From an uncultured bacterium (GTDB lineage: Bacteria; Patescibacteriota; Saccharimonadia; UBA4664), in assembly GCA_963720265.1 (NCBI GenBank), contig CAVRET010000002.1, positions 71,602 to 135,601 on the forward strand: a stretch of 64,000 bases of DNA, read 5' to 3'. The position numbers and the translations under genes are program-made. Positions 10,963-54,647 of this stretch are shown here, piece after piece (the stretch's first letter is position 1; every line of letters starts with the position of its first letter). The notes below the pieces were generated by a model. It was not told the origin of the DNA. It ran no database searches and worked only from the letters and a program-made list of their open reading frames with translations.

Positions 10963-13900
10963 TCACTCGCCGATCATAACGTTGCCGTTTTCGTCCACAT
11001 AGACCTCACCCGGTGCGAGTTTCTTCGGCTTTTCGGTCTTCACCTCGTTCGATTCCATTGGCTTGGTACCGGCCGTAGGCAAAATCAGCTTGCCGGGCAC
11101 TGCAGCTCCCTCGGCTTCCCCCGTCGAGGCCTGGGCGGGCTGCTGTGGCTGCGGAGGCGGCGGCGGAGGTGCGGACGGCGGAGCCGGCTTGCTCTCCGGC
11201 GGCTCAATGACCTTTTCCTTGTGGCTACCGTGATTTGCCGGCGCGTTTTCCTTATTCTTGTCGCGGTCACGCCAGTGCCGACGCTTATTGGCCTTACGAT
11301 TATCCGTTGAAACTGGGCGCTCAGCCTTGTCATCTTTGGCCGGTTTAGTCGGTTCGGGTTCAGGAGGTGGGGCTTGGGGCGCAGCCACCACTTCACTGGG
11401 AACATCTAATTTTTGGCTAGCCTCGCGCTCAGCCCGAGCTTTAGCCACATCGTCAGCTGCCAACGATTCCGCCTGCGGTACGTCCAAGTCTAAATCGTCA
11501 GATGCTGTCTGGACCACCCCGGACACCGGCATAGCTGCAGGTTGCGGTTTCGGCACATCAGGTGGCACTCCCATCATTTGTCCCGGATGTTTAATAACGG
11601 CAGCCTCAGGCTCGGCTCGGGCTTGCTGGACTGTGAGCACCGGCTCAGGCGTAGCAGGTGCAGCCAGAGGAGATGGTGGTGTTGGCTCAGGCCGTGGGGG
11701 CGGTACAGGCTTTGGCGCAGGCACTGGCGGCAGAGGTTCGGGTGTGGGCTCACGCACAGGCTCGGGCGCAGGGGCCGGCGGTCCCTGCGAGGCCGGTTCG
11801 CGTACTGGCGCTGGCTGAGTCGGTACCGGTGGGGGCGGCGGGGGCGCGGATACCGGTACGGACTGCGGAGCTAACGCGGCCGCCTCAGCCGCCTCTTCAC
11901 GCTTCAACTCACGCTGCAATTCCTCGCGTTTCGACTCAATTGGCTCGGTCGGCTGAATCACCTTAATGCCATGATGTTCAGACACCGGGACCAGCTCTTC
12001 CTTGGGCTGCAACTTCGTCGTCTTCGGTATCGGTAACCGACGATGCCGCTCCACTGATGAATCAAGCAACGACGTTCCGACCAACGCGTCGATCTGCTTC
12101 TCGACCTCATTGATTTGCTCAGCAGCCTGCGGCTGTGGCGCCACTACCACGGGCTGAACCTCCGCCGGCTCAGGCGCAACCGGCTCAGGCGACAAGATAG
12201 GTTCAGGAGTGGATGGTGGCACGGGTCTAGGCGCCAAAGCGGGAGCCAGCCTTACAGCCGGGAGTGGCTCCGGCGCCGGTGGGGTGGGTTCTATGGCTGG
12301 TTGCTCAGGCTGAGGTTCAGGTTCCGGCACTGGTTGCGGAGCAGGTGCAGGGACTGTAACAGGAGCCGAAGACTCAGGTTCTGGTTCTAGCGCTGGTGGC
12401 GGAAGTGGAGGTTCCGGCATTGGCTCGGGTTGCGGTATAAGCTCCGGTTCCGGTTCTGGCACGGGCAGGGGCGGCGGAGTTGGCGCAGGCTCGGGCACTG
12501 TTGGCGCCGCAACCGCCGGCATTGATTGGTCAATAAACGTCACACCCGGCGGCAAACCCTCGGTTGACATCAGACCCGAATCCGCTGAGGCGGGTTGCTC
12601 CGGCGCCGGCTTCGCTCCCGGATCAAGTACTTGGATCAGGTCCTCAGCGCCCTCCTCACTCGGCTGTGGTGGGGGAGCTACTGACGGCTGCATAGCGGCA
12701 GACCCGGCAACGCTCGCCGGCAAGCCAGAATCCGCCGCCGGGCCCATCGTCGGCCGCGCCGGCGTCTTACCACCGGTAATGTCGCTCAGCGATAATGTTC
12801 CGGGCGCGCTTGGCGCACTCGACCCAACTGGAGGGCGTAATGGCGACGGGGGTGGCGGTGGCACTGGTGGAGCCTCAACCGTTACGGTTGGTGCCTGCGC
12901 CACCGGCGAAGCATACGTAGTCTCTTCCATGACAGGTAACGGCTGTGGGGGCTGTGGAATCTGCTGTACCGGCGCTACCGGTGCTGGAGGAGGTGGCATG
13001 GATGGTAAGGGTAGAGGTGGCAGTGAGACAGGGGCCGGCTGTGGTGGAGGCGGTGGCGGTACTGGAGGTGTTGGCGGCGGAGCAGGCGCAGCGGCTGACG
13101 CCACTCCTTGCCCGTACAGGTCGATCGGCTGCATTGCAGCTCCAGCAGGCTGAATGGGAGCAGGTGCCGGCGGAGGAACCGGTGCCACGGGCAACGGGGG
13201 CGCCTGAACGGCCGCTACTTGACCACCCAAGGCTCCGGCCATACCCGCGAGACCCACTTGAGTAGCGGGATTTACGGCTGCAGGCTGCGGAGCCGGTGGC
13301 GGTACGGCGACTGGTGGCGCAACCGACCGCGCCGGCCGACCTGATAGCCGGTCCAAAATATCTTGCTCGACTTGAGCCCGCGCGTGGCCGAACTTAGCCG
13401 CGCTCAGTTGCTTAATCGCCTGCCCCAGCTCCAGGTTCGCACTCCCCAACGGCGGCGAATCGCGAATCGTAAACGGTTGACTCGGCAACCCGCCAATCAT
13501 GAGCCGCATGGCCGCGTTAAAGTTTGGCAAGTTCACCAGATCCCCAGCATCAAACACCGGCGAAAATTGCTTTACCATGAACTCAGCGTCTTCCGGTCCC
13601 ATCCGGTGTGCCACAATCGTACCGATATTGCCAAACACCGCATCGCGAATCTCCGGCCTGAGTTGGCCGATAAACTGGTTCGCCACGATCAGATTCAACC
13701 GATATTTCCTAGCCTCGCTCAAAATGCTCGCAAAGCTGTCGGTCGAAAAATTCTGAAACTCATCCACGTACAGCGCAAAGTCCGGCCGCTGATCTTCCGG
13801 CACCTCAGCCCGGCTCATGGCCGCCGCCTGGAACTTAATCACAAAAATCATACCGAGCAGTTGTGAGTTGAGCTCCCCTATTCGCCCCTTGCTCAGGTTC

Positions 13901-20116: not shown

Positions 20117-21145
20117 CTAAAACTGCTCCAGGAATGCCAAGTCAGGCCGCCAAAATTCCCTCACATCACCGACATTGTAGCGAATTGCCGCTATTCGTTC
20201 CGGCCCGAATCCAAACGCAAACCCACTGTATCGCTTAGGATCAATCCCCACGTTTTTCAGCACCTGGGGATGCACCATGCCCGCGCCACCAAGCTCGACC
20301 CAACCGGTCCCATCGCACAAGCGACACATGTGCCCATCAATTTTTCCGGTTCCGTGGCAAATTACACATGTTGCATCCATCTCAACACTTGGTTCAGTGT
20401 AAGGAAAATAGTTCGGTCTAAGCCGCAGTTTTGCATCGTCACCTAATATGCCCCGCATCATTGCTTCAAGCGTCCCTTTTAAATCAGATACGCTCACGCC
20501 TTCGTCAACAACCAACCCCTCAAGCTGATAAAAACTCCACGAGTGCCTTGGATCCTCATCCTCATTCCGATAAACTTTACCCGGTGCAACAATCCGAATT
20601 GGCAACTCATCGCGATGAGCTTCCATGTAACGAATCTGCACCGTTGACGTGTGCGTGCGCGGCAAATGCGCCTCCTCCAAATAAAACGTGTCCTGCAAAT
20701 CTCTGGCCGGATGATCACGACCAACCAGCAGTGCTTCAAAATTATGCCACTCGGTTTCAACCTCAGGCCCTTCTGCCACCTGATAGCCCATTTGCCAAAA
20801 CACATCTACCAAATCATCAAGCACTGTCACAACTGGGTGGCGGTGGCCGAGACCAAGCGGCAAACCGGGCGCCGTCACATCAAGTGGTCGAGCCAGCTCG
20901 TTGCTCCAATCAGCCGCTTGGAGCTTGGACTGTCGGGCTTCCAGTGCCTCTAAGACGCGTTGTCTCACCGCATTGGCTGCCGCACCAGCCGCCGGCCGCT
21001 GGTCTGCAGGCAGCGACCCTACTGCACGTAGCTCTTTGGTCACGCTACCGTTGCGGCCCAAATATTCGACCCGCAATTCTTCGATCTCGCCAAGCGACGA
21101 AGCGGCCGTGATCCTCGCCAGCATTTGGTCCTGATTCATGGCCAT
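20117..21145 (-). CDS. pheS: phenylalanine--tRNA ligase alpha subunit
   Basis: Class II aaRS motifs FPYTEPSVEMD and GWVELGGAGMVHP are present. It is directly upstream of pheT. Confidence 0.9.
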   Translation of the reverse strand: MAMNQDQMLARITAASSLGEIEELRVEYLGRNGSVTKELRAVGSLPADQRPAAGAAANAVRQRVLEALEARQSKLQAADWSNELARPLDVTAPGLPLGLGHRHPVVTVLDDLVDVFWQMGYQVAEGPEVETEWHNFEALLVGRDHPARDLQDTFYLEEAHLPRTHTSTVQIRYMEAHRDELPIRIVAPGKVYRNEDEDPRHSWSFYQLEGLVVDEGVSVSDLKGTLEAMMRGILGDDAKLRLRPNYFPYTEPSVEMDATCVICHGTGKIDGHMCRLCDGTGWVELGGAGMVHPQVLKNVGIDPKRYSGFAFGFGPERIAAIRYNVGDVREFWRPDLAFLEQF

Positions 21146-21540
21146 CGTAACCTCACATACACTTCAACAATTCCTAACAACAATGCCAGTAGTATACCAT
21201 CAAGCGTACTCAACTGATGAAGCGAACTTAAGGCCAGCAGCCCGGTCACCCAACCGCTAGCCAACAAACCTTGCCGCCATGAGTAGCGCAAGCGGTTAAG
21301 GCCGGTCGCGTGAACATGCAAAAACCATTTAACGGCATAAAGTACCAGGCAAATGGCCGCCGCCATTGTCACGAGTAACACCAAAAACCACAGTGTAACG
21401 CCGAGTGGTCCGAGCCCCAATGGATTGGTGAAAACCAGGCTCAGGCCAATCGCTGCGGCACCGATGATTAAACTTAGTACCAGTACACTCAACCAACCAA
21501 CAACAGTCACGTAACCCTCACCGTTAACGGTTACGCTCAT
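21136..21540 (-). CDS. four-TM membrane protein (hypothetical), first gene of the pheST operon
   Basis: The ORF track gives 21136-21588. I prefer the internal ATG (MSVTVNGEGYV...) with a GGAG RBS, because the longer start falls inside a terminator stem. It overlaps the pheS start by 10 nt. Confidence 0.45.
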   Translation of the reverse strand: MSVTVNGEGYVTVVGWLSVLVLSLIIGAAAIGLSLVFTNPLGLGPLGVTLWFLVLLVTMAAAICLVLYAVKWFLHVHATGLNRLRYSWRQGLLASGWVTGLLALSSLHQLSTLDGILLALLLGIVEVYVRLRWP

Positions 21541-21575
21541 TATCGCACTCCGCACAGTGCGTTCGCAAACAGCGC

Positions 21576-21607
21576 AAAAACCGTCCACCGGGTGTATCGG
21601 TGGACGG
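21576..21607 (-). terminator. rho-independent terminator/attenuator hairpin just upstream of the membrane-protein/pheST operon
   Basis: A 10-bp stem CCGTCCACCG/CGGTGGACGG with a 7-nt loop is followed on the minus strand by TTTTT. It lies about 36 nt before the preferred start at 21540. Confidence 0.5.
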
Positions 21608-21829
21608 GGAAAAATAAGTCCAGAGTTACGGGCCGAACAAGCATCCGTTATATGTGTAATTGACGCGTCGGCCCGTAAGGGGATCTCTACCCATGGGTCG
21701 CATTGCGTTACTTCCTTGTTAGAGGTTGTTGGCTCAATGTTTGTTTTTGAGTAAAGATTTTGGTTTGTGAACTTGCGCGCAACGTTTTTAGTTATCGTTT
21801 GTTAATTGCGTAAAGCAAGTTCATAGTGA

Positions 21830-22190
21830 CTTCCTCCTGCCCGTTCGGGCAGCCGGAAGGCAGCCGGCTACAATCAGGGATTGCAACCGCTTGCCCTCCG
21901 ACTCTCGTATTAGCGACCTTTGGCGCGCCGTCCTAGTTTGGGCCTAGGACAAAAAGGTGGCGGACGATAGTAGGGTGAACCCAGGTTAGAAATAAGGGGG
22001 ATACCTCTAACCAGGGCTGACCCTACCATCTGGGAAGGAGTTGAAGTAAGAGACTGGACTGTCAACGAACTTGGCCATAACTTAGCACAAGCGTGATAGA
22101 TTGTCAATTTCCCTACCCTGCTCTAACTGCATGTGAGGATTACCTACACGTAGGCAAAAAACGACGACTTCGTTGTAATTTTGATCTCCG
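21830..22190. other. GC-rich structured island inside a 700-bp AT-rich intergenic region (candidate ncRNA or leader; identity not assignable)
   Basis: Many nested stems are visible. Examples are CTGCCCG/GGGCAG, AGCCGG-GGAA-loop-CCGGCT, GTCCTAG/CTAGGAC, CCAGGTTAGA/TCTAACCAGG and GTAGGGT/ACCCTAC. A hairpin plus T-run lies at about 22157-22185 on the plus strand. No RNase P, SRP, tmRNA or T-box consensus was found. Confidence 0.25.
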
Positions 22191-22306
22191 TTCTATCGGA
22201 CGATGTTGATTTAAAAACAACACCCAGCCTCAAACTAACAAGTGCCTCGCAAGAGTAGAATCACAATTAGAATACGAACGGCTTAAATACGCAAAGGTCG
22301 CAAAGC

Positions 22307-23299
22307 CTAGACGAGACCAAGCCGCTCCTTAACCACGGTCAGCTTGGCATTGGCCAGCTCACTCGCCCGCCACCAGCCGTGCTCCAAGGCCTTATCAATA
22401 CGCTCGTTATCATCTTTCATCAGCTGCTGGAATGTGTGCTGCAGCGGCTTCAGCGTATGTACCACCAAATCAGCCAAGTCTTCCTTGAAATCGCCGTAGC
22501 CTCTTCCGGCATACTTTTCTTCAAGCTCAGGGATAGTCTTCCCGCTCAGCACCGACATGATCACCAGGAGATTCGTCAGCGCTGGCTTGTCCGGACCGCT
22601 TGCCACCTGACTACCGGAGTCGGTAACGGCGCGCATGATCTTCTTCCGAATCAACCCCTCGTCATCGGTCAACAGGATAGAGCCGCTGAGATCTTCATCG
22701 CTCTTGCTCATTTTGCGGGTGGGATCCTGCAAGTCCATAATGCGCGCCCCCTCCTCCTGAACCACCGGCTCCGGCACACGAAACGTATCGCCATGGATAT
22801 TGTTAAACCGGGTCGCGATATCACGCGTCAGTTCTACATGCTGTTTCTGATCATCGCCAACCGGCACTTCATCTGCATCGTAGAGTAAAATGTCAGCCGC
22901 CATCAATACCGGGTAATCATACAAGCCAACCAACTGGCCCTCGGGCCCAAACTTCTGAGCCTTATCTTTAAACTGGGTCATACGATTGAGCTCACCCACG
23001 GTCGTGTAGTTGTTAAAAATCCAGGTTAGCTCCGAGTGAGCCGGCACTTGCGACTGCATGAAGATGTATGAGTGGTCATGGTCAACTCCAGAAGCCAACA
23101 ACCAGGCCACTGCCGCCCGGCTGTTGTGCTTGAGCTCCTTTGGGTCAGGCCGAACCGTGAGAGCATGCAGATTTGGCACAAAGAAAAAGTGCTCGCTTCC
23201 CGACTCAGCACTCATCTCACCCCAGCGTCTGAGTGCGCCCAAGTAATTACCCAGTGTTAAATCACCCGTTGGCTTTACACCTGACACAACTCGCTTCAC
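22307..23299 (-). CDS. trpS: tryptophan--tRNA ligase
   Basis: The N-terminus is MKRVVSGVKPTGDLTLGNYLGA (HIGH-region variant) and a KMSKS motif is present. Confidence 0.9.
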   Translation of the reverse strand: MKRVVSGVKPTGDLTLGNYLGALRRWGEMSAESGSEHFFFVPNLHALTVRPDPKELKHNSRAAVAWLLASGVDHDHSYIFMQSQVPAHSELTWIFNNYTTVGELNRMTQFKDKAQKFGPEGQLVGLYDYPVLMAADILLYDADEVPVGDDQKQHVELTRDIATRFNNIHGDTFRVPEPVVQEEGARIMDLQDPTRKMSKSDEDLSGSILLTDDEGLIRKKIMRAVTDSGSQVASGPDKPALTNLLVIMSVLSGKTIPELEEKYAGRGYGDFKEDLADLVVHTLKPLQHTFQQLMKDDNERIDKALEHGWWRASELANAKLTVVKERLGLV

Positions 23300-24779: not shown

Positions 24780-25360
24780 AACCCCGCGAGGAACCCCGGA
24801 GCTTGCTCCGGGGAGGGATAGCGCCGGCGAGCACCTGTCCGCCTCTGGTGGACACAGCAGTCTTTCATTAGCACAATGGTGGTATGGACGTTCAAATCGG
24901 TGCCCACTGTCGGTATCAGATTCGGTACCATTTGGTATGGGGTGTCAAACTTCGACGCAAGGTACTGCTAGCCAACCGCAGCCAATACTTAAAGCGGGTG
25001 CTTGTCGAGATAGCCCAGGCTTACGACTGGGAGCTGGAAGCTGTTGGCACCGATGACGACCATGTCCATGTATTTATAGGTGCTCATCCAAAAATCGCGC
25101 CAGAGAAGTTGGTACAGATCTTAAAAAGCAAGAGCGCACGGGCCTTGTTTGTCCAGTTTCCCGAAGTCAAACAGTTCTTGTGGGGCGGTGCGATGTGGAG
25201 TGTCGGCTATTACATTAGGACCGTCTCTGACGGTCCGTTGGAAGGAGTTATAAAGACGTATGTTGAGCAACAAGGTAAGCACCGACCCACTCAGGCCAAA
25301 TCGTACCAACTGAAGCTGGTGCCCTAAGTGACAACCACGGAGCTTGCTCCGTGGGGGTGT
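24780..25360 (+). mobile_element. IS200/IS605-family insertion sequence (tnpA only)
   Basis: tnpA is flanked by near-identical direct-orientation hairpins. CCCCGGAGCttgCTCCGGGG lies at 24794-24813 and CCACGGAGCttgCTCCGTGG at 25335-25354. This is the typical subterminal LE/RE structure of Y1-transposase IS elements. Confidence 0.6.
24884..25327 (+). CDS. tnpA: IS200-like Y1 (HUH) transposase TnpA
   Basis: The 147-aa product contains YHLVWGVKLRRKVL, an HUH motif (DHVHVFI) and the catalytic-Tyr region (MWSVGYYI). Confidence 0.8.
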   Translation: MDVQIGAHCRYQIRYHLVWGVKLRRKVLLANRSQYLKRVLVEIAQAYDWELEAVGTDDDHVHVFIGAHPKIAPEKLVQILKSKSARALFVQFPEVKQFLWGGAMWSVGYYIRTVSDGPLEGVIKTYVEQQGKHRPTQAKSYQLKLVP

Positions 25361-30896: not shown

Positions 30897-32714
30897 ATGA
30901 AGCAAGCCGTTATTTACGTTCGAGTCAGCACACTCGGCCAAGCTAAGCGAGACCGCGACCCTGAGGGCTACTCTATCCCCGCTCAGCGCGAAGCTTGTAC
31001 CCGAAAAGCCGAAAGCTTAGAAGCTACCGTTATCGCCGAATACGTAGATGCCGGTGAATCTGCCCGCTCTGCTGACCGTACGGAGCTACAACGTATGTTG
31101 AACTTTTTGCAACAGAATAGGTCTGTTGACTACGTAATCGTCCATAAAGTCGACCGTTTAGCCCGTAATCGTGAGGACGACGTTAATATCAACCTCGCCA
31201 TTCGCAAAGGTGGAGCCAAGCTTGTCTCATGTACTGAAAACATCGATGAAACCCCCTCCGGTCGTCTAGTCCATGGCATCATGGCTACCATCGCCGACTT
31301 CTATTCCTCCAATCTGGCCGCCGAAGTCGCCAAAGGCATGACCCAAAAAGCCAAGACCGGCGGCACAGTCACGCGCGCTCCACTCGGTTACACTAACCGT
31401 CACGAGCTTACCGATGGGCATGACATTCGCTGGGTGGATATCGATGAGAGCCGCGCCGATCTCGTCCGACTGGCTTTCAAGCTGTATGCCACCGGCGACT
31501 ACTCGCTAGTTGCCCTCGCAGAGATCTTAACTAAGAAGGGCTTACTATCGCGTGCGACCAAGCGCCACTCTGAACACGCTCTCACCAAAACCACGCTGGC
31601 GCAAATGTTAGCCAACCCGTATTACACCGGCATCACCACCTACCAAGGCGTTGAGTACCCCGGCAAGCACCCGGCGCTTATCGATCCTGGCCTCTTCGGG
31701 CAGGTTCAAGACGTACTAAAGGCCCGCTTAATTGGCGAAAAACAACGGGTGCACATGCATTACCTCAAGGGCACAATCTTCTGTGGCCGCTGCGGCTCAC
31801 GGCTGTGCGTGACTTACCAGAAACAACAATACTTGTACTACTTCTGTCTCGGTCGCTCCAAGAACAACGGTTGCACTCTACCTTACCTAAATGCCGACGA
31901 CATCGAAACCCAAATCACGCGCTATTACTCCCTGATTAAGCTAAGTAAAGCTGAAGGTGAGCATGTCCGCTCAGAAGTCCACACCTACATCAAAGAAAAC
32001 CAGGCCGACTTTACTACTGAGGCCAAGCGGCAACGGCTGCTGCTTGAACAGCTTGAAGCCGAGCATGCGAAATTGCTCCAAGCCTACTACGCCGGTTTTA
32101 TGCCACTCGATACCTTCGGTGCCGAGCAAAGCCGCATAGCAACCGCCAAACAACACGCCACTGAAACACTCGCCACAGCCGAGCAAGGATTTGACGACGT
32201 GGCTGGTAAATTAGACCAGGCCTTACATCTAATGCAAAACTGGAGTGAAGTGTATGAGGAAGCTCCCAAACGGCTCAGGCGCAAGCTGAACCAAGCCTTC
32301 TTTGAGGCTATCTATGTTCAAGAATCCGATGATCTCGTTACAACAAATGGGTCGCAACTGACCGAGCCATTCGCGGGCATTATGACGATCTCTGGCAGGC
32401 CTCGTGCCGCAATAACCAAAATGACTGCTCAGGTACGAAAAAACCAACCTGTTCGGTCGGTCCCTTCGAACATACCTGTTTTTTATACAGAAGGTTCCAA
32501 AGCGGAACCTCTGGTCGGGGTGAGAGGACTTGAACCTCCGACCTCAGCGACCCGAACGCTGCGCGCTTCCAACTGCGCCACACCCCGAAGGCCTCTGAAC
32601 CAAATAATAATAACCTTAAATTGCGAAGTTTGCCAGTCTAAGACCGCCCAAACCAGAACGGACGTGGCACTCTCACCTCATCGCCAGCGGGTCGGGCGCG
32701 TCTGGTTGAAGTGA
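30897..32714 (+). CDS. large serine recombinase (resolvase/invertase N-domain, recombinase domain, zinc ribbon)
   Basis: It starts MKQAVIYVRVSTLGQ with the catalytic Ser. It has the DRLARN motif, a recombinase domain and a CGRCGSRLCV...FCLG zinc ribbon. The last ~70 codons of the ORF run antisense through tRNA-Pro, so the true C-terminus is uncertain. Confidence 0.85.
   Translation: MKQAVIYVRVSTLGQAKRDRDPEGYSIPAQREACTRKAESLEATVIAEYVDAGESARSADRTELQRMLNFLQQNRSVDYVIVHKVDRLARNREDDVNINLAIRKGGAKLVSCTENIDETPSGRLVHGIMATIADFYSSNLAAEVAKGMTQKAKTGGTVTRAPLGYTNRHELTDGHDIRWVDIDESRADLVRLAFKLYATGDYSLVALAEILTKKGLLSRATKRHSEHALTKTTLAQMLANPYYTGITTYQGVEYPGKHPALIDPGLFGQVQDVLKARLIGEKQRVHMHYLKGTIFCGRCGSRLCVTYQKQQYLYYFCLGRSKNNGCTLPYLNADDIETQITRYYSLIKLSKAEGEHVRSEVHTYIKENQADFTTEAKRQRLLLEQLEAEHAKLLQAYYAGFMPLDTFGAEQSRIATAKQHATETLATAEQGFDDVAGKLDQALHLMQNWSEVYEEAPKRLRRKLNQAFFEAIYVQESDDLVTTNGSQLTEPFAGIMTISGRPRAAITKMTAQVRKNQPVRSVPSNIPVFYTEGSKAEPLVGVRGLEPPTSATRTLRASNCATPRRPLNQIIITLNCEVCQSKTAQTRTDVALSPHRQRVGRVWLK
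32512..32587 (-). tRNA. tRNA-Pro (anticodon CGG)
   Basis: Manual cloverleaf: acceptor CGGGGTG/CACCCCG, U8, D-stem GCGC/GCGC, anticodon stem CAGCG/CGCTG with loop TTCGGGT, T-arm GGAGG-TTCAAGT-CCTCT, discriminator A, and an encoded CCA. Length is 76 nt. Confidence 0.85.
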
Positions 32715-42757: not shown

Positions 42758-42786
42758 TTGACAAACTATACTTGTTATGTTAATTT
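42758..42786 (+). promoter_or_regulatory. candidate promoter plus long structured leader for the methyltransferase-pilB unit
   Basis: TTGACA, a 17-bp spacer, TAATTT. A long-range hairpin GGTTCCTGGTAA...TTACCGGGAACC follows in a ~150-nt leader. Confidence 0.3.
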
Positions 42787-42930
42787 GCCTACACCCAAAC
42801 GAAAGGAACTATATGGGTATTAACCACGCAATCAAATTCTAGGTTCCTGGTAACAAGCTCCTAATCCACTTTAGAAGTTTATTACCGGGAACCTCATCGG
42901 GAGTTTCCCAGGCTAGGAAGGCATACGCCA

Positions 42931-43662
42931 ATGTCCTATGACCAATCAGCCAGACTCGGTGTCTACGACGCAATCTATACGCACATGAAGAGCTACCCAA
43001 ACGAGGCCGCCAGGCTCGTTGAGCTTATCGGCCAATATCTGCAGACGAACTCGAAGAGCATCCTCATGGTAGCCCCCGGCACCGGCCTGCACGAGTATAC
43101 CCTGCTTAAACTCGGCTACCCGAATATCACTGGGCTCGACCAAAGCCCTGCCATGCTCGAAGTAGCCCGCGGGCGTAACCCCGGTGTTACCTATCACCAG
43201 GGCAATATGCAGGACTTCAACCTGGGGCAGCAATACGCGGTTGTCGCCAACCTGTTCAGCGCCATCGGCCACATCGGACCAAACGAGCTACATAAAACCA
43301 TTCGGACGCACGCCCGGCACACGCTGCCCGGCGGGGTGATCATTATCGAGCCCTGGATAATGCCGCACATGTGGCAGCCCGACCACCTTACCTACAACGT
43401 CGTAAACGAACCCAGCCGACTCATCGTCCGCACATCAAGAAGTACGCTTCGCGACGGCAACATCACCGAGGTTGAGCTGAGCCATCTCGTGGTAACGCCT
43501 GAGCGAAGTGAGTACTTCGTCGAGCGCCACACACTCACCATGTTCACCGAGGAGGAATTTATGGCCGCTTTTCAGGCCGCCGGCCTCAAAGTCTGGTACC
43601 TTCCCGAGGGGCTAAGCGGTAATGGCCGAGGCATATTTATCGGCCGCCAACCCCTGCGCTGA
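42931..43662 (+). CDS. class I SAM-dependent methyltransferase
   Basis: Motif I is ILMVAPGTGLHEY, with post-I and II motifs. Its stop overlaps the pilB ORF. Confidence 0.75.
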   Translation: MSYDQSARLGVYDAIYTHMKSYPNEAARLVELIGQYLQTNSKSILMVAPGTGLHEYTLLKLGYPNITGLDQSPAMLEVARGRNPGVTYHQGNMQDFNLGQQYAVVANLFSAIGHIGPNELHKTIRTHARHTLPGGVIIIEPWIMPHMWQPDHLTYNVVNEPSRLIVRTSRSTLRDGNITEVELSHLVVTPERSEYFVERHTLTMFTEEEFMAAFQAAGLKVWYLPEGLSGNGRGIFIGRQPLR

Positions 43663-54086: not shown

Positions 54087-54464
54087 TGGTGGAGCTGCGG
54101 GGAATTGCACCCCGGTCCGCCGAGTCACACGACAGCGCACTACAGGTTTAGTCTACCTGGGAGTCTTAGCCAAGCGTCTGTGAGCAGACGAAACGGCGCT
54201 TGGAGCAGCCTCAAATCTTAGGGTTCGAGCAGAGGCGCACTCGAAACTGCAACCCGATAAATTGACACCGGCGAACCCCTACCGGGTATCAGGTGCCGAT
54301 GGCTTTCGTTATTAGGCGAAAGCAGGAGCGAGCGAAGGCATGCTAAAAGCAGACTTCACCCGCGAAAGAAAGTTGGCAATTGAGCTAACTTGATGGAATC
54401 TGACGTTTGCCTCCGACCTGCGCGTATGTCCTGTAAAATTCCCGACGTCGAAGCTGATCAGCCC
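54087..54464 (-). ncRNA. ssrA: tmRNA (ssrA)
   Basis: The 5' end is GGGGCUGAUCAGCUUCGACGUCGGG (E. coli begins GGGGCUGAU...UUCGACGGG). The 3' end is GGACCGGGGUGCAAUUCCCCGCAGCUCCACCA (E. coli ends ...CCAGCUCCACCA). The acceptor stem has the G3-U70 Ala identity pair. An internal tag frame ends ...PSLAPAFA-TAA-TAA. Confidence 0.8.
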
Positions 54465-54647
54465 CACGTTTATGGACCAAAGTATAGCATATTGAGCTAA
54501 TTGAGGCAAGAATAAGCATAAGAAGTGTTGTGGTAAAAACGACGTTTTAACAAAAACTGCTTGCCTGTGTCCAAGCTTTTTGGTGCAACCGCCGAAGCAC
54601 TATGGCAGCCGCTTCCCTACCATTATGGGCATAAGGAGGAACGTTAA

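Follow-up and report, generated by a model that had tools for sequence, protein, structure and literature searches.

The 64,000-nt stretch of DNA analysed here as a whole (the window; contig CAVRET010000002.1 of assembly GCA_963720265.1, from an uncultured member of the Saccharimonadia) carries a minus-strand run of genes coding for RmuC (24407-23343), the tryptophanyl-tRNA synthetase TrpRS (23299-22307), a small membrane protein, the phenylalanyl-tRNA synthetase subunits PheS (21145-20117) and PheT (20116-17795), and an L,D-transpeptidase. TrpRS and the membrane protein are separated by a gap, and the question raised by this locus is whether the gap is a leader that regulates the membrane-protein/pheS/pheT operon or contains a gene of its own. 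The initial annotation, based on a GC-rich helical island and a terminator hairpin in the gap, offered both possibilities, a pheST leader of the attenuator type and an independent small RNA. The independent RNA is the one supported: the gap has its own predicted promoter and terminator, its helices covary, and the RNA is kept where it is unlinked from pheST. The attenuator leader is not upheld. We consider it probable that the gap is a single-copy gene for a stand-alone structured non-coding RNA of ~0.5 kb, transcribed from the minus strand, and that it is not an attenuator of pheST.

No conserved open reading frame (ORF) was found in positions 21511-22306, and insertions and deletions distinguishing homologues are not multiples of three. 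ARAGORN detected no tRNA-like gene in the gap. The GC content of the 21800-21950 segment is 0.56-0.61, compared to 0.38-0.47 in the flanks, and folding of the 21800-22160 segment gave z values of −6.6 for the minus strand and −2.2 for the plus strand, which agrees with the reported GC-rich helical island in an AT-rich trpS-pheST gap. When the full 500 nt (22073-21574) were folded and compared with shuffled sequences, the minus-strand z was −10.2, and the plus-strand z was −4.5. The first helix, H1, was assigned to the minus strand because of its G-U pairs; many conserved G-U pairs become A-C mismatches if read on the opposite strand. The helices, initially placed at 21830-22140, are therefore real minus-strand helices, but they extend over 21838-22031, while positions 22032-22107 are occupied by a leader and a promoter. 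The island had also been taken as distinct from the AT-rich part of the gap. In fact, RNA structure continues in the 3′ direction through helices H5, P6, and H4 up to the terminator; since these helices fill the AT-rich part, the island and the terminator make up one unit of ~500 nt. The predicted RNA gene and its parts, in 5′ to 3′ order, are the following (the support for each is given in brackets).

21576 to 22072, minus strand: whole RNA gene, ~497 nt (fold z; full-length homology at 26 loci)
22059 to 22070, minus strand: 5′ motif GUUCGUUGA(A/C)AG, also given as GUUCGUUGACAG (alignment A2)
22031 to 22053, minus strand: pyrimidine-rich leader that follows the 5′ motif (alignment A2)
21966 to 22031, minus strand: H1, a 26-bp hairpin with apical region GGUAUCCCCCUUAUUUC and loop at 21993-22003 (covariation)
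21916 to 21958, minus strand: H2, a hairpin with loop G-Y-CCA-W-R and a 5-6-bp basal extension (covariation)
21852 to 21902, minus strand: H3, a long hairpin with a conserved asymmetric internal loop (14 pairs, 98.5% paired, 8 changed on both sides)
21838 to 21851, minus strand: H3b, a small CCC/GGG hairpin with a nearly invariant stem (alignments A2 and A3)
21826 to 21837, minus strand: purine motif GG(A/G)GGAAGU, GGAGGAAGU (alignments A2 and A3)
21769 to 21822, minus strand: H5, a variable hairpin (minimum-free-energy fold of the window sequence)
21683 to 21758, minus strand: P6, a 10-bp helix between 21749-21758 and 21683-21692, around a variable A-rich insert (covariation)
21628 to 21676, minus strand: H4, stacked outer 8-bp and inner 7-bp stems (99% of alignment cells paired)

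Comparison with 185,579 species genomes showed that the nearest relatives of PheS (58-77% identity) are encoded by metagenome-assembled genomes (MAGs) of Saccharimonadia, a lineage of the candidate phyla radiation (CPR/TM7), and eight Saccharimonadia MAG loci have the conserved gap ahead of pheS. When metagenome contigs were scanned with TTAGANNTATCCCCCTTANTTCTAA, the 25-mer that is best conserved, 18 further loci were obtained; in these, the 22 specified bases of the 25-mer are invariant by construction. In the nine independent sequences (those retrieved via PheS, and the window itself), just three single-base deviations were found within the 22 specified bases. The RNA family obtained comprises 27 sequences (the window and 26 loci from Saccharimonadia MAGs and metagenomes), all of which align from promoter to terminator. 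A second copy or a paralogue of the RNA was found neither in the window nor in the 98 loci, and phage, plasmid, and viral collections contained nothing similar.

The alignment of the 27 sequences showed that the region is conserved and covaries. About 85 base pairs in eight helices are conserved, and more than 50 of these show compensatory changes. H1, H2, and H3 taken together contain 46 pairs; 98.1% of the cells are paired, and both sides have changed in 23 of the pairs. The corresponding values for P6, H4, and the terminator are 33 pairs, 91.6%, and 20 pairs, while for the H2 stem with its basal extension they are 12 pairs, 93%, and 11 pairs, including all 6 pairs of the extension. In each of the three tests (H1-H3; P6-H4-terminator; H2 base), the observed covariation score was reached by none of 500 shuffles; controls in which the pairing partner was slid had 30-55% of cells paired and came out two to three times lower. 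Because covariation exceeds both the shuffles and the slid controls, the structured RNA family is genuine.

The helices follow one another along the RNA in the order H1, H2, H3, H3b, H5, P6, H4, after which come a linker and the terminator. All but a few cells of H1 are paired (98.6% over 26 pairs), and 10 of its pairs are changed on both sides. Its apical loop, UAUCCCCCUUA, is C-rich (C5), and the 11-nt apical sequence is invariant in all independently retrieved homologues. H2 is missing from the six most divergent homologues and is for this reason placed outside the core. Both sides change in 7 of the 10 pairs of P6, the insert of which is reduced to a 4-nt loop in one locus (L005). In H4, swaps from G-C to C-G in seven sequences and from U-A to C-G in nine are accompanied by conserved junction and loop bases (GAC, CAAUUACACA, and UUC), and some homologues contain an extra hairpin. 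H5, in a poorly aligned region, has 65% of cells paired versus 25-41% in slid controls, and its support is weaker than that of other helices. Pairing between the pyrimidine-rich leader and the GGAAG motif (p = 0.012, shuffle z of −1.0) would close a multi-helix junction around H1-H3b; this helix is weakly supported. A helix between the 5′ leader and the linker preceding the terminator, seen in the minimum-free-energy fold of the window, was rejected: it forms only in the window and in L006, and cognate pairing did not differ from non-cognate pairing (p = 0.11). The 7-nt loop of H2 (21930-21950 in the window) has a CCA that is invariant in 18 of the 18 homologues having H2. This loop resembles the tRNA-Trp anticodon loop, and the RNA adjoins trpS.

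Signals that could direct transcription of the RNA and of the operon were located on both sides of the RNA, as listed here together with the first operon gene.

22205 to 22221, minus strand: conserved upstream block with palindrome GTTG-N9-CAAC, TTTGTGCATAAATGTTGAAA..CAACA (GTTG and CAAC columns invariant in alignment A1)
22079 to 22107, minus strand: predicted promoter P1, with −35 element TTGACA (22107-22102), a 14-nt variable spacer, TGC, and −10 element TAAGTT (22084-22079)
21576 to 21607, minus strand: intrinsic terminator of the RNA gene, a hairpin (21607-21581) followed by T5 to 21576
21539 to 21568, minus strand: predicted promoter P2 of the membrane-protein/pheS/pheT operon, with −35-like TTGCGA (21568-21563) and TGC + GATAAT (21547-21539)
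21136 to 21510, minus strand: first operon gene, coding for a predicted small membrane protein of 124 amino acids (aa), with a GTG start and Shine-Dalgarno (SD) sequence GAGGG at 21519-21515

P1 is a predicted promoter of the consensus σ70 type located ~55 nt upstream of the first helix, with its TGC and TAAGTT spanning 22087-22079. The pattern TTGACA-N14-TGN-TANNNT occurs twice in the window, versus 0.06 occurrences expected, and nearly all homologues have P1 ahead of the RNA, the hexamers being conserved and the spacer variable. The tmRNA promoter in the window has the same layout (TTGCCT-N14-TGC-TATACT, ~54512-54484). The ends of the RNA were set from P1 and the terminator, the 5′ end ~7 nt past the −10 box and the 3′ end at the U-tract. 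The minus-strand 10-bp terminator hairpin with its U-tract at 21576-21607, described in the initial annotation, is indeed present (8 of the 10 pairs are G-C, and the loop is 7 nt long). A hairpin and U-run are found at the end of every homologue with differing sequences, and all eight of the pairs counted change on both sides. Many homologues have a GNRA-capped mini-hairpin, GCCGUGAGGC, within the terminator loop. In L001, a near-identical terminator sequence, GACGAATGCCGTGAGGCATGCACTTGAGCGGCTTTTTT, is present twice, after trpS (8-43) and at the end of the RNA gene (~790-830).

The palindrome block upstream of P1 may be an operator, a UP-type element, or a regulator-binding site of the RNA gene. 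It is retained in L006, a locus without trpS; in L008 and L009, the palindrome is immediately adjacent to the −35 box. In the window, the first half of the block is degenerate. A second conserved block, at 22142-22155 of the minus strand, is a small hairpin that follows a T-run (columns 165-265 of alignment A1 cover both blocks).

P2 is located downstream of the terminator and upstream of the first operon gene. Its extended −10 element in the window is TGCGATAAT at 21547-21539 (P2 being TGNNATAAT); it is conserved as TG(C/A)GATAAT, or as TGNCATAAT in more distant homologues, and is followed by UAAGCGUGAG and the GTG start. An alternative start of the membrane-protein gene, ATG 21540, overlaps the conserved −10 box, and alignment with homologues (VSVLGWL...) points to GTG 21510 (VTVVGWL...) as the most likely start. 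Since the gene would start at GTG 21510 and not at ATG 21540, the terminator is ~65 nt upstream of the gene, with a promoter in between, and not ~36 nt before it as had been proposed. The membrane protein has no Pfam or NCBIfam match. The end of its gene overlaps the start of pheS, and the gene precedes pheS across Saccharibacteria, including those without the RNA (L078 and L040). In L078, the gap between the RmuC gene and the membrane-protein gene is 38 nt, and the RNA is absent.

At loci with inserted genes, the RNA behaves as a unit distinct from the operon. In L005 and L089, the RNA terminator is separated from the membrane-protein gene by an opposite-strand gene (a 395-aa ORF and a DUF6879 gene, respectively), and in both cases the extended −10 element and the motif of the 5′ untranslated region adjoin the membrane-protein gene and not the RNA. 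In L082, the RNA has opposite-strand ORFs on both sides, and neither the membrane-protein gene nor pheS is present in the 940 nt available downstream. Among the 18 loci retrieved by motif only, i.e., independently of context, two are unlinked from pheST. On the other side, trpS is missing in L006, and a decarboxylase gene separates trpS from the RNA in L094, so the RNA is not a trpS 3′ untranslated region. The presence of P1, the position of P2 downstream of the terminator, and the separability of the RNA from the operon make the hairpin, as we read it, the end of an RNA gene and not an attenuator.

A cis-acting leader was the main reading of the initial annotation: depending on a signal, transcription from P1 would either terminate at the 21607-21576 hairpin or proceed past it, thereby controlling membrane-protein/pheS/pheT. 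The RNA lies on the same strand as the operon and immediately upstream of it in 23 of 27 loci, and the distance from the highly conserved H4 junction domain to the terminator, 20-30 nt, is that expected of an aptamer. We regard this explanation as unlikely, because a conserved promoter is located between the terminator and the gene and moves with the gene, while the RNA and its terminator are intact in L005, L089, and L082, where leading pheST is impossible. Moreover, sequence variation in the 5′ arm of the terminator is unconstrained, in contrast to the almost invariant sequence upstream, and the best alternative pairing of this arm with upstream sequence, as expected of an antiterminator, equals that of shuffled sequences (mean z of −0.2 for 25 terminators, 3 of which were wrongly picked by the script). 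At ~480 nt, the element is also far longer than known leaders, and it matches no cis-regulatory family of Rfam. A leader of the T-box type, in which a divergent element would sense uncharged tRNA-Phe, is extremely improbable. In its favour, pheS is T-box-controlled in Firmicutes, and, in the window, H1 contains a UUC followed by A in its 3′ arm. As a positive control, T-boxes of 95-118 bits were detected upstream of pheS in L031, L066, and L064 (two Clostridium loci and one Erysipelothrix locus), the gathering score of the T-box model RF00230 being 93 bits. The gap itself gave no RF00230 match at E ≤ 10, and the T-box sequence AAUUAGGGUGGNACCGCG had no matches in the window at up to three mismatches, in line with the failure of the initial annotation to find this consensus. 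The UUC, considered as a Phe specifier, was rejected: it is CUC, UUU, or UCC in homologues, and its bases are mostly paired in a near-continuous helix instead of being exposed in a specifier loop. No antiterminator could be identified, and three loci have the RNA without linkage to pheST. The T-box explanation is already refuted by four defining features. Control by a leader peptide, the other classical mode of pheST regulation that had been invoked, left no signature either. A 25-aa candidate peptide, running from AGGAA..AUG to a UAA in H4, is open in only ~8 of 25 homologues and in different frames, and the short ORFs contain 0-3 Phe codons each, usually one or two, never in a run.

The same observations bear on the suggestion that the region codes for one or more small proteins or is the remnant of a repeat or mobile element, the probability of which we consider negligible. 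The window does contain ORFs with SD-like sequences, the one of 25 aa ending in H4 and another of 10 aa after AGGAGG; however, the former is not maintained, and AGGAGG belongs to a purine motif, with no conserved ORF after it. A remnant is contradicted by the lack of a second copy and of any similarity in the phage, plasmid, and viral collections. A housekeeping RNA (6S RNA, RNase P RNA, or signal recognition particle (SRP) RNA) so diverged in CPR bacteria that Rfam models miss it is very improbable. The RNA does have a strong promoter of the stable-RNA type, similar to that of tmRNA, and a single copy, and homology searches are notoriously poor at finding 6S RNAs. Yet no family matched even at E ≤ 10. 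6S RNA is a ~180-nt rod with a terminal loop, and the chain of local hairpins seen here has neither its 5′/3′ closing stem nor its large central bubble; also missing are the domain IV motif of SRP RNA and, from RNase P RNA, the P4 pseudoknot and the conserved regions. The RNA is also 2.5 times longer than 6S RNA, and other Saccharibacteria (L078) do not have it at this locus. Searches with Rfam 15 at the gathering threshold over the whole window returned only tmRNA and tRNA, both outside the gap; at E ≤ 10 on 21400-22450, no relevant family was found, the lone match being a chance snoRNA in the membrane-protein gene, and at E ≤ 1 on seven homologous loci there was no relevant match. In these searches of the gap and seven loci, no match to 6S, RNase P, SRP, OLE, ROOL, GOLLD, raiA, HEARO, or any riboswitch model was obtained. 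The island is thus assigned to no known family, and the region is conserved; two outcomes named as refuting in the initial annotation, placement of the island in a known family and lack of conservation, did not occur. Several likenesses were dropped as due to chance or not conserved: GAUGACGCG in E. coli 4.5S RNA and UACGAGAG of the sarcin-ricin loop, both short or not conserved in homologues, a ZTP-like ACUGGCG, and a comparison of the H1 loop with the 3′ tail of 16S rRNA; Rfam supported none of them.

Several points weigh against our reading of the gap as a stand-alone RNA gene. The promoters, the start site, and termination are predictions from sequence. In the 23 loci mentioned, the RNA immediately precedes the operon on its strand, which makes some read-through coupling possible. 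Synteny is weak evidence either way, because the genomes are related (as the PheS identities to the window show) and have local gene order in common. That 22 nt of H1 do not vary among the 18 metagenome sequences stems from the search pattern, and nine sequences provide an independent test. Finally, action in trans as a ribonucleoprotein (RNP), with a hypothetical partner, would rest on analogy with large RNAs, on size, and on the degree of conservation.

Any specific mode of action is put forward with much less confidence than the stand-alone gene. The RNA probably acts in trans, most likely bound to protein as an RNP or otherwise folded into a tertiary structure; its size, the number of its helices, and the strict invariance of its unpaired parts resemble protein-bound or tertiary-structured RNAs more than small RNAs (sRNAs) that pair through a seed. 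The surfaces contacting a partner would likely be the invariant unpaired parts, namely the H1 loop, the junction and loop of H4, and the GGAAG motif; in addition, G-rich or SD-like sequences could be pairing partners of the C5 loop. That the RNA is a base-pairing sRNA, with its C-rich H1 loop directed at G-rich or SD regions of target mRNAs, seems unlikely to us. C-rich loops do pair in this way in RsaE/RoxS and RNAIII. Such a function would fit the invariant 11-nt apical sequence with its C5, as well as the RNA's own promoter and terminator. On the other hand, the 64-kb window has no convincing complementary site, only scattered AAGGGGG away from start codons, and 500 nt with ~85 conserved base pairs far exceed what seed pairing needs; Hfq is generally missing from CPR genomes. 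It is similarly unlikely that the RNA represents an undescribed class of large (~0.5 kb) structured RNA, limited to one Saccharimonadia lineage of the CPR and with a biochemical role of its own, such as an OLE-like RNP with the adjacent membrane protein, or an RNA linked to aminoacyl-tRNA synthetases; the latter example is suggested by the fixed place between trpS and pheST and by the tRNA-Trp-anticodon-like CCA loop of H2.

Comparison with known systems helps to place the stand-alone RNA. Like a T-box leader (RF00230), it is a structured coding-strand RNA that precedes pheS and stops at an intrinsic terminator. Unlike a T-box leader, it has no model match, T-box sequence, conserved specifier, or antiterminator, is about twice as long, is separated from the operon by a promoter, and persists unlinked from pheST. 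E. coli pheST is controlled by the pheM leader-peptide attenuator, which is likewise located upstream of pheS with a terminator ahead of the operon; the RNA described here differs in having no conserved short ORF, no run of Phe codons, and no alternative hairpins overlapping the terminator. An invariant exposed C-rich loop, a promoter of their own, and a Rho-independent terminator are also features of the sRNAs RsaE/RoxS and S. aureus RNAIII, but our RNA is much larger and far more structured, and no target complementarity was found in the window. OLE, ROOL, GOLLD, and raiA are large structured bacterial non-coding RNAs whose function is unknown or emerging (PMC3413148, PMC12265935, PMC12286853). 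The RNA is similar to these in its length of several hundred nucleotides, many covarying helices, invariant unpaired nucleotides, narrow range, and its own transcription unit; it differs in having no Rfam sequence or structure match and in consisting mostly of local hairpins with few supported long-range helices. As in the ole/oapA arrangement, the RNA is usually directly upstream of a gene for a small membrane protein. Here, unlike in ole/oapA, the membrane-protein gene belongs to the pheST operon, exists without the RNA in other Saccharibacteria, and remains beside pheS where RNA and gene have come apart.

In the searchable literature, we found no report of a large lineage-specific structured RNA in Saccharibacteria or Patescibacteria, and Rfam 15 contains no match. 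The best reading is that the RNA is new and restricted to one clade, a single Saccharimonadia group, and is another orphan among structured bacterial RNAs. Its size is notable, as is its presence in a CPR lineage whose genome is very small; in CPR/Patescibacteria, genomes are tiny and contain little non-coding DNA. Because a single-copy, strongly promoted RNA of ~500 nt and ~85 bp is costly in a genome of ~1 Mb, an important function in the lineage is probable. The RNA joins, as a candidate, the short list of large bacterial RNAs without known function. Its position alone invites mis-annotation as a T-box or attenuator of pheST, which is corrected here.

Other features were observed elsewhere in the window. 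The only other perfect TTGACA-N14-TGN-TANNNT promoter belongs to a plus-strand element at 42758-42930, where it is followed by a 9-codon ORF with an SD sequence (MGINHAIKF), a long hairpin at ~42841-42893, and a methyltransferase-like ORF at 42931-43662. This element may represent a small RNA or a control of the leader-peptide or attenuator type. The tmRNA gene (89.9 bits) is located at 54087-54465 and the one tRNA gene at 32515-32587, both on the minus strand. Many imperfect GGNGGN-rich direct repeats (families D1-D4 and D7) at ~11100-13320 suggest a gene for a large glycine-rich repetitive protein. Lastly, two copies of a palindromic 25-mer, AACCCCGGAGCTTGCTCCGGGGAGG, which are 88% identical, are present at 24792-24816 and 25333-25357, and are likely to be related hairpin or terminator elements that flank a region with a 111-aa ORF.

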